A stretch of DNA of 64,000 nt from Elusimicrobiota bacterium (lineage in GTDB: Bacteria > Elusimicrobiota > Elusimicrobia > UBA1565 > UBA9628). This document shows, one piece after another, positions 48,001-54,000 of the stretch (its first letter is position 1; each line of letters begins with the position of its first letter). The stretch covers positions 257,306 through 321,305 of the forward strand of contig JACRDN010000016.1 of assembly GCA_016218575.1 (NCBI GenBank), given 5' to 3'. Made by a program: the position numbers.

Positions 48001-51000
48001 TGGCCAGCGATCATTATGGGGTGCGTGACCTCTTGCGGCCGAGTTTCGGCCGCAAGGTGGCCTACCCCAGCTTGGGCGAGGCCCCGGCGGCCCTGTCCGC
48101 GGCCTTGGAGGATATTCTTTCGCAGAGGCGCAGGCTCAAGGCCATGGGCCAGGCCGCGCGCCTGGCCGCCGAGGGCATGCCTTTCGAGAAGGCGGCGGCC
48201 GAGGTCCTGCGCCTGTCACTCGAGGAAGAGGCCTTCCATGAAGCCCGGCTTTAAGGTTGGTCTCAAGGTGGACATGCCAGCCGTGGTCAAGCCATCCATG
48301 AAGCCCTATCTGGAGGGCTTGGTCAGCCATCGGCTCTACGCCACTTGGGCCATGGTCTACCACATGGAAACGGCCTCGCGCATGCTGCTGGCCCCATATC
48401 TAGAGCCCAGCGAGGAGGCGGTGGGGGCGGGGGTCCTGGTCAAACATCTGCGTCCCGCGCGCCTGGGTTCGCCCCTGCACGTGGTGGGCACCTTGGTCCG
48501 GGTGAGGGGCTCGCGGGTCTATTCGCGCATCGAGGTGTTTACCCGACACCGGAAGGTGGGCGAAGGTTCCACCATGCAGGTGGTGATGTCGCGGGCGCGG
48601 TTCGCTCGGCTTCTGAAGGAGGCGCGCTAACATGGCAGTCCGTGAAGCGGTGGCGGTGGCGGCGGTGCGGTCTCCCGTGGGCAGGCTCGGGGGGGCCTTG
48701 GCCGGGGTGCGCCCGGACGATTTGGCCGCGGCCGTGATAGCGGCCCTCTTGAAGAAGGCCCCCCGCCTCGACCCGGCCGAAATATCGGACGTGTACCTTG
48801 GCTGTGCCAACCAGGCGGGCGAGGACAACCGCAACGTCGCGAGAATGGCCGCGCTTTTGTCTGGTCTCCCCCAGTCGGTGCCCGGCTGCACTGTCAACCG
48901 CCTCGGCGCTTCCGGCTTGGAGGCCGTCAATGCCGCGGCCCGCGCCATCCTGGCCGGGGAGGGCGACGTCTATGTTGCGGGAGGAGTGGAGAGCATGAGC
49001 CGGGCGCCGTGGGTCCTGCCCAAGGCCGAGGCTCCCTATCCCTACGGCAACCTCACGGCCTACGACACCGCCCTCGGCTGGCGCTTTCCCAATCCCCGCC
49101 TCGAGAAGATGTTCCCCCTCTACAGCATGGGGGAAACGGCTGAGAACGTGGCCGAGCGCCATAACATATCGCGCAAGGATCAGGACGCCTTCGCCCTGCG
49201 CAGCCACCAAAGGGCTGTCGCGGCGCAGACCGGCGTTTTCAGTGAGGAGATCGTCCCCATCCAAGTCATCGGCCGCAAGGGTGAAAACCGCGAGGTTGCC
49301 GTCGACGAAACTCCGCGGCCGGACTCGAGCCTGGAGAAGCTCTCCGCCCTGAAGCCCGCCTTCCGCGCCGGAGGCAGCGTCACCGCAGGCAACAGCTCGA
49401 CCCTCAATGACGGAGCCTCGGCCCTGCTTCTGATGGAAAGGTCCAGGGCCGCGGCTCTTGGCCTTGCGCCCCTTGCGCGTTGGGCCGGCTCGGCCTCGGC
49501 CGGAGTGGATCCCTCCTACATGGGCCTGGGCCCCGTGCCTGCGACCCGAAAGCTCATAGGCCGGCTGGGGATTAAGATCTCGGAGATAGACTTGATCGAG
49601 CTAAACGAGGCCTTCGCGGCCCAAAGCTTGGCCTGCATCCGAGAGCTTGGAATAGACGAGGAGCGCTTGAACGTGAACGGCGGCGCCATCGCGCTCGGCC
49701 ACCCCCTGGGCTCGAGCGGAGCGCGCCTCTGCGTGGCCTTGCTTCACGAGATGCGCCGGCGCAAGGCCCGGCGCGGCTTGGCGACCCTTTGCGTAGGAGT
49801 CGGGCAGGGCCTGGCGACCCTTTGGGAAGCGGTATAACACTAGTGTAGTGTCCCGGAAATAACTGGACAATGGAAGGCCCAGAATTGAGAACAGTTCTAG
49901 GAGCCTGTCCGAGTAATCGTCCGGACGCATGACAGGTCCCTTCCGCATTCTTGGAATGGCGGTCCGGGTCCTGCCGGGGGTGGGGCCCATCGCCCTCTGC
50001 GCGACTTGCTGTGCTCGTCTCGCACCCGGGCGATCCGACCCACCCCCGTCACCCGACCCGTTCAAGGATGCGGATCGGACCTGGCCCAAAAACGGGCCGC
50101 CGACACACTCGATCGCCTTATTATGGTATATTTGTCCTACCATCGCCCGGTCGACGGCGTGGACGCCTCCGCCTATCGTTTGAGTGAGACTACTACAATG
50201 TTCCCCAGACTGTTGAGATGCTTATTTATCGCGGCGCTCTTGGCTGCGGGGCCAAGCGGGCAAGTCAGTGCCGGTCCTCTTCCACTCTCAGAGTCTGAAT
50301 TTTTCCGCAGGCTTCAAGCAATCAGGCAGGCAGTCTTACAGACTCAAGCTCAGGCCCCTCCGGCCGTCAGGGCCGCGCAAAGCAATCCGCCCGATTTCCC
50401 AATCGGCAACCCGGTCCAGGAGGGGCTCGACTCCGCTGCGCTTAAGAGGCTCCTAGATCGTGCGGCCGCAGAGCGCTCGGATGTCATTTTGATCCTGAGG
50501 CGCGGCAAGCTCGTCGCCTCGCAGGGCGCCTGGGATCGGAAGATCTACGCGATGTCCGCGACCAAGTCCGTGGCGAGCCTTGCTGTCGGATTACTCATCG
50601 ATGACGGCCTGATTCAATCGCTCGATCAGCCTGTGTCGGATTTCGTTTCCCAGTGGAAGGAAGGAGAAAAGAGTAAGATCACAATCCGCATGCTGTTGAA
50701 TCACACCTCCGGCCTGGACACCCACGGGCGGGGAGTGCCCTACGCTTTGAATGCCCCGCTGGTTTACCCGCCGGGAACCGCTTTCGTCTACAATAATCCC
50801 GCCGTTGATCTTCTTGGTGTGGTCATCGAAAAGGCCTCGGGCGTGCGCGCCGATCTCTATATCGCCCGGCGGCTTTTCGAGCCGCTCGGCATCGCCGATT
50901 GGGATTGGGCCAAGGACAGCGCGGGAAACCCCTTGATCGCCGGGGAGCTCCAAATCCGGCCGGCGGATCTAGCGAAGATCGGGCAAATGGTTCTTGACGG

Positions 51001-54000
51001 AGGCGTGTGGAACGGACGGCATGTGCTCAGCAAGAGCTGGCTTGAGCGGTCGGTCGAAGCGTCGCAGCCTTTCGATCCCACATGCGGCCTGCTCTGGTGG
51101 CGGGACGCGCAGGCGCGTTCCATCGGGTTTACGCCCAGACTGTTGGAAGCCTGGGGCCGGGCGGGGGTTCGCGCCGAGGTCCTCGATCCGATGCGCCCTT
51201 TGGTCGGGCGGCCGATGAAAGACATGGGCGAGCTCATCGCCGCGATGCGAGCCGCCTATCAGGGCCATCCTTCGTACCTGAAGGAGCTCAACGCGGTATT
51301 GATGCGCAACCGACTCCAGTGGTACGAGGTCATTGAACTAGGCCCGGTCGAGGGCTTCTCCGCGCAGGGTTGGCTTGGGCAATTCCTGGTGGTGGACCTC
51401 AAGCGAGGCTTGGTCGGCGTCCGCATGCGCGATTCCCGCCCAAGCGATTATCCGACGCTTGAGAATCCACATCCGCCCTATGTGGACACGTTCGATGACT
51501 TCCCGAAGTATGTTCACGAACTCGCGCCAGCCCTCTAGGAGCCCGTCCGAGTAAATCCCGTCGGTAAGAAGTAAAATTCTCTCCGCGCCCAAGGAGAGAA
51601 TGAGCAAAACCTACCGCCCCTACGAGCCGGACCAGATGCTGTTGCTGCCGTCGTCGATCAAGGACTGGCTGCCGAAGGGCCACCTGGCGCACTTCGTCAG
51701 CGACATGGTCGATGAACTGGACCTGAGCGCGATTACGACGGTCTACGAGCGGGAAGGCCGCGGCTACCCGCCGTACCACCCGACGATGATGGCGAAGATG
51801 CTGCTCTACGCGTACTGCGTCGGTCTGCCGTCGAGCCGCAAGATCGAGCGCGGGCTTGTGGAGGACGTGGCGCTGCGCTACCTTGGAGCCAACAACACGC
51901 CGGATTTTTGGACGATTTCTGATTTCCGAAAACGGCACCTTGAGGCGTTGAGCTATGGGTGGATGAGGTCGACGAGGCGGAGGACGCGGAGTACGGGCGC
52001 GACAAGCGAGGCGATGAACTGCCGGAGGAGTTGCAGCACCGGGAAGGGCGGCTCAAGAAGATTCGATAAGCCAAGGCAGCGCTGGAGCAGGAGGCGCCAT
52101 CGCGCTCGGCCACCCCCTGGGCTCGAGCGGGGCGCGCCTCTGCGTGACCTTGCTTCACGAGATGCGCCGGCGCAAGGCCCGGCGCGGCTTGGCGACCCTT
52201 TGGGAAGCGGTATAGAACGGCTGGTATAACACGGTAGCAGGTGCCAGGCACCCTCCGGGAGCCAGGCACCGCTAGCGTCGGCGATCGACCACGTAAGCCG
52301 AGCCGGGCTGCTGCTTGGCGAATTTTTTGAGCTCGGCGCCGTAATGCGAGATTTGCGCGTAGGAGGTAAGGCTGCGCAGCCCGTTATGGCAGATCCCTAT
52401 GGCGATGGAGAGCAGGGGAAACTCGACCACTCGCCCCTGCCTGTCGGTTGAGACGATTTTTTTATTCTTGCGATCCTTCGCGTTGTAGAAGATGGGCGCC
52501 ATGCCATCAAAATCCGTGATGATATCCCGAGAGAGGGCCTCCATGCGCTTGGGATGCGTCAGGACGATGAAGTCGTCCCCCCCAATATGCCCCACGAAAT
52601 CCTCCACCACGCCCTTGCCGCCGCGCGTTAGCTTGACGAGAATGTCGGCAGTGGCCTTGATGACCTTGTCGCCGGCCTCGAAGCCGTAGGCGTCGTTGTA
52701 GGCCTTAAATTGGTTAAGGTCGAGGTAAAGGACGGCCAAGGGCTTGCCCGACTCGATGGCCTCCTTGATCCTCCTTTGGATCGAGACGTTCCCTGGCAGG
52801 CGGGTGAGGGGATTGGCGTCGAGGCCCTGCTGGGTGCGCTTCAAGATCATGTGGATGCGCGCCAGGAGCTCCTGGAGATCCACGGGTTTGGTGATGAAGT
52901 CGTCGGCGCCGAGGTTGAGCCCCTTGATTTTGGTGTCTCGGGTTCCCGCCGCCGAGAGCAGGATCAGCGGCAGGTGCTCGTAGAGAGAGTCCTTGCGCAG
53001 CTCCCGGCAGACCTCGAAGCCGTCCATGCCGGGCATGCGCAGGTCCAGGATCGCGATGTCCGGCGCGCGGGCGCGTATGGAGTCGAGGGCTTGCCTCCCG
53101 TTGTCCACCGTCTCCACATGAAAGCCGGCCATCTCCAGGCTTTGCTTGATGACGATTAGGAGGTCCGGCTCGTCATCGGCCAGCAGGATGCGATGCTTAT
53201 TGTCGGAGCTCACGAGCCTAGTTTGGTCGTAATTTGTGACCATGTCAAGAGTCTCCGCCTAGTGCTCCGACCGAGCCATAATGCGCGTTGTGGGGGCCCG
53301 GATTTGAGCTGGATGCTAGGAGCGAGGAGGGAGCATAGCGGTAGCTATGTGACCGACAAGCGACGCCGCAGGCCGCCAAAGCCGGACCCCCGCTCTATGG
53401 AGGAACTGTCTACGATCAAGATGTCAGCGATTTCCTTAAGAAGAGCGGCCGGACGCTTTTGGCCTACGCCTTCGTTGCGCTCGCCTCACAGGCCTTTCAG
53501 GCATGCTCGGCTCGCGCGCCTCGGCTCGCTCCAAAAGCGGCCGGCCACAACGCGCATTATGGCTCGGTCGGAGCACTAGTCCCGTCGGGCCGAGAAATTG
53601 ACAGTAATTCTCAAAAATTGATAAAATGACTTTGTAAGTTTCTTGCATGTCCGTCGATCCCGAGGAGTCTGACAAGAAGCAAAACGGGGCCGCCGCGTGG
53701 GCCTTCGCGCTGGGCGCGGGAACGCAGCTCGTGACCAGCGTTCTCCTGGGCTTTCTCGCGGGGCAATGGCTCGACGGCAAGCTCGGGACCGGGCCGTGGT
53801 TGATGTTGTTGGGCGCTTTCTTGGGAATCAGCGTTGGACTCTACCAACTTATCAAGGCGCAGGCGCGTCGCGACGGCCGTTAAAAGCTCTTTGGAAGCAG
53901 CCTTGGCGGTGGCGGCGGCTCTGACTCTGGCGGGCATGTTCGGGCGGCCCGCGGAGCAGTGCCGGGGCGCGGCTGTCGGGCTGAGCGCGGCGTGGCTGGC

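Follow-up and report, generated by a model that had tools for sequence, protein, structure and literature searches.

A probable decayed IS1182-family insertion complex with a serine hydrolase passenger, bracketed by a duplicated thiolase gene end, in an Elusimicrobiota genome

Why does the 3′ end of a thiolase gene recur after 2.25 kb of other DNA, beyond a serine hydrolase gene and the remains of an insertion sequence (IS)? The arrangement lies within a 64,000-nucleotide stretch of an Elusimicrobiota genome (assembly GCA_016218575.1, contig JACRDN010000016.1, positions 257,306 to 321,305; the whole stretch is called the window here), and an earlier note on this DNA had read it as an IS-mediated insertion or duplication that has since decayed. 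We favor, with moderate confidence, an account that treats the 2.4-kb segment as the decayed remains of an IS1182-family insertion, with a PF00144-family hydrolase as passenger, and derives the second thiolase tail from recombination of one allele that carried the insertion with another that lacked it. Judged from the sequence, the segment lies at the terminator between the converging thiolase and response regulator (RR) genes.

The full-length thiolase gene occupies 48632-49837 (+ strand, 401 aa). Its codons ~350-401, together with the stop codon and 3 nt beyond (tail copy 1, 49679-49840, +), recur as a dead thiolase fragment at 52093-52232 (tail copy 2, +). A repeat search pairs 49679-49796 with 52090-52207 at 96% identity over 118 nt, the largest repeat in the 64-kb window, and base-level alignment follows uninterrupted homology from 49682-49840 to 52093-52232, so that the second tail reported by the earlier note is indeed present (52090-52232). 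Relative to copy 1, copy 2 has a synonymous A to G change at 49720, a G to A change at 49736 that places Thr at codon 369 where copy 1 has Ala, a TAG stop in place of TAA, a 14-bp quasi-tandem insertion 3′ of the stop, and an in-frame deletion between two 12-nt GGCGACCCTTTG repeats that takes out the region of the catalytic Cys387. This deletion, previously put at 31 bp, measures 33 bp. Residue 369 is Thr in 100 of the 120 closest thiolase homologues, Ser in 5 and Ala in 2 (the window's own protein included), with 13 that could not be scored. We take Thr369 to be the ancestral state, and each tail then appears to carry a derived state of its own, T369A in copy 1 and the 33-bp deletion in copy 2.

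Beyond ACAC the two tails are no longer homologous, and 3 nt further on begins a hairpin that is found after copy 2 only. Copy 2 continues into GGTAGCAGGTGCC…, the start of this strong, terminator-like structure (52236-52273; -28.4 kcal/mol, z -3.0, with 0/200 shuffles equally stable), which lies between the converging thiolase and RR genes and extends to the stop codon of the latter. In appearance it is native to this intergenic region, and it could plausibly serve both genes as terminator. Copy 1 gives way to inserted DNA starting 3 nt ahead of where the hairpin would begin; this DNA has no significant structure (z -0.07) and is unrelated by local alignment to the flank of copy 2. Its first 56 bp (49841-49896) form a spacer unlike the sequence after tail copy 2, in which there is no significant hairpin and for which no significant local alignment was obtained with the post-tail-2 sequence, the IS ends or a 321-bp inverted-repeat element described below. 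Taken together, tail 2, the intact hairpin and the RR gene thus look like the locus without interruption or insertion.

On its other side copy 2 is joined to the middle of the transposase gene. The illegitimate junction (52090-52096) leads directly from the transposase sequence to thiolase codon ~351, and its two parents appear to share GGCG (6/7 nt). Because it lies inside the transposase gene, at about codon 224, and not at an IS end, transposition did not make the tail-2 junction. The claim of the earlier note therefore divides: the IS-associated, decayed insertion stands, and the duplication by transposition falls on the mid-transposase junction and the native-looking hairpin that follows tail 2. 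Direct repeats flanking inserted DNA might also be read as a long target-site duplication, with the ~160-bp tail repeat as the duplicated target and the ~20-bp repeats that surround the hydrolase as the bounds of a gene cassette. We regard this as highly improbable. The right-hand junction lies within the transposase gene rather than at an element end, IS1272-type elements insert without target duplication (PMC4923244), and the 20-bp repeats are found as IS terminal repeats at unrelated loci. With the repeats identified as IS ends, we rejected the long target-site duplication and likewise an integron cassette (attC) reading.

The transposase gene into which tail copy 2 is joined is itself a ruin. 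The left terminal repeat and leader of the IS (51535-51599, +) are delimited by alignment with relatives, and a leader hairpin (51576-51601, z -4.95) overlaps the transposase start codon at 51600. Codons 1-117, the DUF772 region (51600-51950, +), match NF033551 (8e-35) and PF05598 (1.9e-16); the NF033551 match spans profile positions 1-112 of 488 and scores 120.6 bits, below the full-length cutoff of 270, as expected of a fragment. Codons ~182-224 follow in another frame (51968-52096, +), with an in-frame TAA at 52067-52069, and the ~175 bp for codons ~118-181 are missing. These limits come from tblastn with annotated full-length IS1182 transposases from Halomonas (Halomonas sp. KO116) and Alicyclobacillus acidoterrestris plasmids, to which the DUF772 region is 56-60% and the middle coiled segment 60-69% identical. 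With the same two queries the window holds no DDE domain (DDE_Tnp_1 / DDE_Tnp_1_6) nor anything else past codon ~224, and tblastn finds no other transposase copy or remnant in it. With these ~175 bp and everything past codon ~224 lost, the IS cannot move.

The element shares with the IS1182 family a DUF772-region transposase and probably terminal inverted repeats (here the left-end motif, present twice; both ends in one relative), and differs in that ~160 of ~450-490 codons are left, with an internal deletion, a frameshift and a stop. The truncated, frameshifted transposase that had been called IS5/IS1182-type is accordingly confirmed as such and as IS1182; the IS5 half of the label does not hold, the IS5 model matching at only 8e-4. 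The earlier note was also right that the transposase frame runs into the second tail: an open reading frame (ORF) at 51600-52229, encoding a 209-aa chimeric product, passes through copy 2 in a frame unlike that of the thiolase.

We identified the ends of the IS from metagenome contigs whose transposases come closest to the N-terminal part of the one here (70-81% identity); the DNA upstream of these genes was aligned to that of the window. Similarity begins exactly at CTAGGAG. The motif CTAGGAGCCTGTCCGAGTAAT stands upstream of homologous transposase genes in the unrelated contigs L161 (with one substitution), L162 and L163, whose flanks further upstream are unrelated. In a further contig, L165, the motif recurs inverted at the far end of the IS (4417-4436, minus strand) and a close variant, CTAGGAGCGTGTCC..., precedes the transposase gene. 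A motif that starts the IS in unrelated contigs and is inverted at its other end in L165 is what a terminal inverted repeat would be, and we accordingly read the ~20-bp repeats of the window as terminal inverted repeats of an IS1182 subgroup. The sequence TCTAGGAGCCYGTCCGAGTAA occurs at 49896-49916 and 51534-51554, 20/21 identical and on the same strand; these are the sole two matches in the window at three or fewer mismatches, where shuffles expect 0.00. A position weight matrix (PWM) built from seven ends, both window copies included, ranks these two first among 127,956 scored positions (36.3 and 31.6 bits). The direct repeats around the hydrolase, and the overlap of the second with its stop codon (TAG, 51536-51538), are therefore as first described, except that they are not cassette boundaries or target-site duplications: they represent terminal repeats of two IS1182-group elements.

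Two side observations concern this IS group. The transposase is split or fragmented over at least two ORFs in all of the IS relatives fetched (L161-L165 and a 1749-bp ENA contig). Several have an overlapping N-terminal DUF772 ORF of ~130-170 aa and a second ORF with a DDE domain where this could be annotated, and the transposases of L164 and L165 look fragmented; the split may be a natural frameshift of the subgroup or widespread decay. Separately, CTAGTGTAGTGTCCCGGAAATA at 49840-49861 (CTAGTG...) starts exactly where the tail homology ends. It agrees with the IS-end consensus at 13/22 positions in register and ranks 16th of the 127,956 PWM positions, a weak match that faintly suggests a degenerate IS-type end as the left edge of the insert.

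The upstream repeat (49897-49933, +) is a solo end: ~37 nt from the terminus of an IS1182-group element, oriented like the end at 51535. Its best match is the left end of the L165 IS (local score 46 against a shuffle maximum of 28), and tblastn detects no transposase similarity 3′ of it. The two window copies diverge past nt ~19, where the solo end is L165-like and the 51535 end L161-like, which argues that they are relics of two different elements and not one duplicated sequence. This bears on the possibility that the segment was once a classical composite transposon, with two full-length IS in direct orientation that flanked the hydrolase and moved it, the left one now decayed to 37 nt and the right one to 560 bp. 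Two same-orientation IS ends do bracket the gene, as such a structure would have them, but the divergence past nt ~19 suggests independent insertions and there is no transposase trace after the solo end. We consider a composite transposon improbable; it would be compatible with the allele recombination proposed here in all but the way in which the passenger was mobilized. No right IS end is present in the window. IS ends lie at gene 3′ ends or in terminator regions here and in L162 and L163, the right junctions here being lost.

The passenger is a gene for a 446-aa PF00144 serine hydrolase (50198-51538, +; Pfam 3.6e-31), in agreement with the beta-lactamase-family hydrolase seen earlier. It shares with the PF00144 group, which includes class C beta-lactamases, family VIII esterases, NylB and Lsa45, the S-x-x-K (SATK) and Y-x-N (YNN) motifs, and among solved structures it comes closest to Lsa45 (8dc1, 1e-17), to a hydrolase related to class C (8rlj) and to NylB. 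In the alignment with homologues there is no KTG box to be seen and an invariant GWLGQ instead. The NCBIfam beta-lactamase, esterase and penicillin-binding protein models all score far under their cutoffs; the best of the beta-lactamase (bla) models, ELC, reaches 15 bits against 840. On these grounds the assignment as a class C beta-lactamase was rejected, leaving membership of PF00144, and nothing indicates beta-lactamase activity.

The N-terminus, read by eye, is signal-peptide-like (Sec). The C-terminus (…VHELAPAL) ends at the same alignment column as most of 9 full-length homologues, and the TAG stop codon lies within the first CTAG of the IS end, so that the IS adjoins precisely the terminus of a gene that is intact. 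Of the whole segment only the hydrolase looks intact and potentially expressed. The protein is identical to MBI5630503.1, which NCBI calls from a later start (349 aa). Apart from this record of its own, the nearest hydrolases are just 52-66% identical, and sequences of at least 90% identity come only from the same metagenome-assembled genome (MAG) or sample. Upstream of the hydrolase gene, on the near side of the solo IS end, an inverted repeat forms a GC-rich hairpin (49965-50055, +; -55.2 kcal/mol, z -4.5), which may be a relic terminator, an IS target or a regulatory structure of the hydrolase.

Was the hydrolase acquired? A metagenome scan with the RR gene yielded three syntenic relatives (L081, L082 and L083), whose RR orthologues are 60-64% identical to that of the window; no strain-level relatives were among them. 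The order glycosyltransferase, thioesterase, thiolase, RR is common to the window and all three, with a thiolase 74% identical in L082, and we regard the thiolase gene as native to the locus. None of the three relatives has the hydrolase. Its slot holds a conserved 230-240-aa ORF (L082, 1279-2001; L081, 2608-3300; L083, 1147-1866; all on the minus strand) that has no Pfam match and of which tblastn finds no trace in the window. The closest hydrolase homologues that lie on long contigs (L169-L171 and L172) stand beside Gp49/HI1420 toxin-antitoxin pairs in otherwise unrelated neighborhoods, which suggests that the family travels in variable regions. Since the hydrolase is absent from the three syntenic relatives, IS ends bracket the gene and its homologues occupy unrelated contexts, it is probably not ancestral at the locus, and the suggestion that it was acquired gains support. 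Composition and codon usage do not mark it as foreign: its GC content is 0.613 against 0.609 for the window, and at third codon positions 0.72 against 0.756 +/- 0.086, neither of them anomalous. From this host-like composition the acquisition would probably be old, or from a compositionally similar donor.

These observations fit together as follows. An IS1182-type element would have landed, in some donor setting, at the 3′ terminus of the hydrolase gene, and this unit, or a larger donor fragment with it, would have ended up immediately ahead of the thiolase/RR hairpin base. Later, a locus that bore the insertion may have recombined with one free of it, with one crossover homologous and the other illegitimate, where GGCG joins mid-transposase sequence to thiolase codon ~351. 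Such an event would remove the 3′ half of the IS and leave a non-functional second tail on the native hairpin and RR gene. The insertion-free allele would read through the thiolase tail, with the 33 bp present, and then directly into GGTAGCAGG....

The original work on homology-facilitated illegitimate recombination (HFIR) was reportedly done in Acinetobacter. The event here could have been of this kind (HFIR; PMC3240628), Campbell-type, or the integration of an excised circle by single crossover. The likeness to HFIR and Campbell-type integration is a mechanistic analogy: one junction appears to fall on a short, GC-rich stretch of microhomology, continuous homologous sequence would lie on the other side, and the outcome would be foreign DNA flanked by a duplicated piece of the recipient gene.

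The same mid-transposase to codon-351 join can be reached without a second allele, if illegitimate recombination between sister chromosomes doubled the DNA from 49679 to the middle of the IS in situ, and a second event deleted the second hydrolase-IS copy. Duplication of 49679-52092 creates exactly this join at the microhomology. The second deletion would then have to restore precisely ACAC|GGTAGC and an intact hairpin, for which the same chromosome offers no template. Because of this exact second deletion we rank an in-situ tandem duplication below recombination between alleles and think it rather unlikely.

Several points weigh against the allele-recombination account. The arrangement is known from one genome; no strain above ~81% thiolase identity, and neither an insertion-free nor a donor allele, has been seen. 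The exact-protein look-ups (thiolase; hydrolase, both the 446-aa protein and the 349-aa call; RR) returned no indexed contig. With the right IS end and right junction gone, hairpin targeting and movement of a unit cannot be read from the locus. Nor does the account explain the 56 bp that separate tail 1 from the solo IS end, or the loss of the relatives' ~230-aa ORF, which has left no trace here, and the host-like composition of the hydrolase offers no help. Finally, the single-molecule structure rests on a short-read MAG. An independent Logan contig (L168, from SRR12113407) is 100% identical over 49854-51621 and spans both IS ends and the hydrolase, but covers that interval only and so neither tail junction.

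This last point raises the concern of an assembly chimera, in which two strain variants, one reading thiolase, spacer, hydrolase and IS, the other IS remnant, tail and RR, were joined through shared IS or thiolase k-mers. The short-read MAG source (a contig of 327,877 bp), the multi-copy nature of this IS family in metagenomes, and the breaks of the Logan contig at 49854 and at 51621, inside the IS, are all in keeping with such an artifact. However, substitutions and indels set the tails apart and their flanks are unique, whereas assemblers make exact duplications, and the window holds no second IS copy to mis-join. Moreover, the junction between mid-IS and tail must exist in real reads, so that the IS-thiolase join would be real in some genome even then. 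We judge a chimera unlikely.

The layout has a counterpart among known mobile units. TnSha1 of staphylococci is organized as IRL'-sh-fabI-IS1272, where IS1272 belongs to the IS1182 family (PMC4923244, PMC5678879). IS1272 inserts at terminator hairpins and duplicates no target; in this unit its insertion point was the base of the terminator of fabI (PMC4923244, PMC5678879). By analogy, the segment has the published TnSha1 structure: a solo IS-like end, the passenger hydrolase and the IS follow one another, all in one orientation. In both cases the passenger is followed directly by an IS1182-family IS, placed right at the 3′ terminus of the gene, and preceded by an additional IS-like terminal repeat that has the orientation of the IS left end (49897-49933 against 51535 here), and the whole occupies a terminator region between genes. 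The differences are also clear. Unlike in TnSha1, the IS here is a remnant without DDE domain, its right end deleted; the unit occurs in one context rather than several, with no sign that it ever moved whole; the passenger is a PF00144 hydrolase and not a drug-target duplicate; and it is found in an uncultured member of the Elusimicrobia. Over 20 nt the solo repeat and the IS end agree at 95%, as if the former were left over from another IS, whereas the upstream repeat of TnSha1 is a fortuitous match of 69%.

A bolder reading would see in the locus a TnSha1-type unit well beyond staphylococci together with a footprint of recombination between strains, homologous on one side and at a microhomology on the other, in a groundwater Elusimicrobia bacterium; we put it forward tentatively, as doubtful. 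It would include the equally doubtful proposition that the IS1182-like ends at 45438, 49840, 49897, 51535 and 53259/53579 form a cluster at neighboring terminators and mark a hairpin-targeting IS group that has struck convergent-gene terminators repeatedly. If the TnSha1-like part were true, passenger capture by IS1182-family elements would not be limited to staphylococci, and if the recombination part were true, the bacterium would have taken up chromosomal DNA of a sister strain and integrated it.

The locus otherwise amounts to an ordinary mobile-element scar, made up of a dead IS1182 element, a captured hydrolase and a dead thiolase fragment, and leaves the current understanding of any system unchanged. 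Its value lies mostly in annotation: the 209-aa chimeric ORF is explained as junk, the hydrolase is flagged as an IS-associated accessory gene, and a terminal repeat is defined for an IS1182-group element, as yet unnamed, that many environmental metagenomes contain. The locus also offers a clean example of a gene-end duplication beside an IS without involvement of the transposase.

The genes on either side merit brief description. The thiolase (Thiolase_N 2.6e-79, Thiolase_C 3e-46) is recognized by the NCBIfam model AcCoA-C-Actrans (TIGR01930) at 469.7 bits against a cutoff of 240.55. Like the hydrolase, it is 100% identical to a protein from a MAG that NCBI labels Elusimicrobia bacterium. Its nearest relatives by protein search are 74-81% identical and largely from Elusimicrobia MAGs; in a scan of genome contigs with the thiolase, none among the matches listed, from which the Elusimicrobia orthologues were missing, was closer than 66%. 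Codon 92 encodes Gly (GGC, 48905-48907) where the nucleophile Cys is expected, giving NRLGASG in place of NRLC[AG]SG. The window protein thus lacks the active-thiolase motif (N-R-L-C-[AG]-S-G), whilst His357 and Cys387 are present in copy 1. Cys occupies this position in 119/120 of the closest homologues, among which C92G is unique. As the window thiolase carries only 4 private substitutions at otherwise invariant columns, C92G would seem to reflect either inactivation by one recent base change, variation among strains or an error of the consensus.

The native right-hand neighbor (52272-53243, -) encodes a response regulator with a GGDEF domain, identified by Pfam. The GGDEF signature reads GGDDF, as it does in the three orthologues from the syntenic relatives, and the Pfam match covers profile positions 5-92 of 161; the domain may be degenerate and non-catalytic.

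Searches of Rfam over 49500-53700 returned no match, for the 321-bp element as for the rest, and a scan for promoter and terminator consensus sequences found nothing over background. Two further sites resemble the IS ends. The third-best PWM match in the window, CTAGGATTCCTGCCGAGAAATT at 45438-45459 (18.1 bits), falls within the 77-bp gap between the converging ORFs 43245-45419 (+) and 45497-46900 (-) and may be another solo IS end at a terminator. The 321-bp element (53259-53579) lies between the start of the RR-GGDEF gene and an ATP synthase operon and has 48-nt terminal inverted repeats (90% complementary). Both of its ends begin CTAGTGCTCCGACCGAG and rank 10th-11th of the 127,956 PWM positions, and it may be a relative of the IS1182 group resembling a miniature inverted-repeat transposable element.

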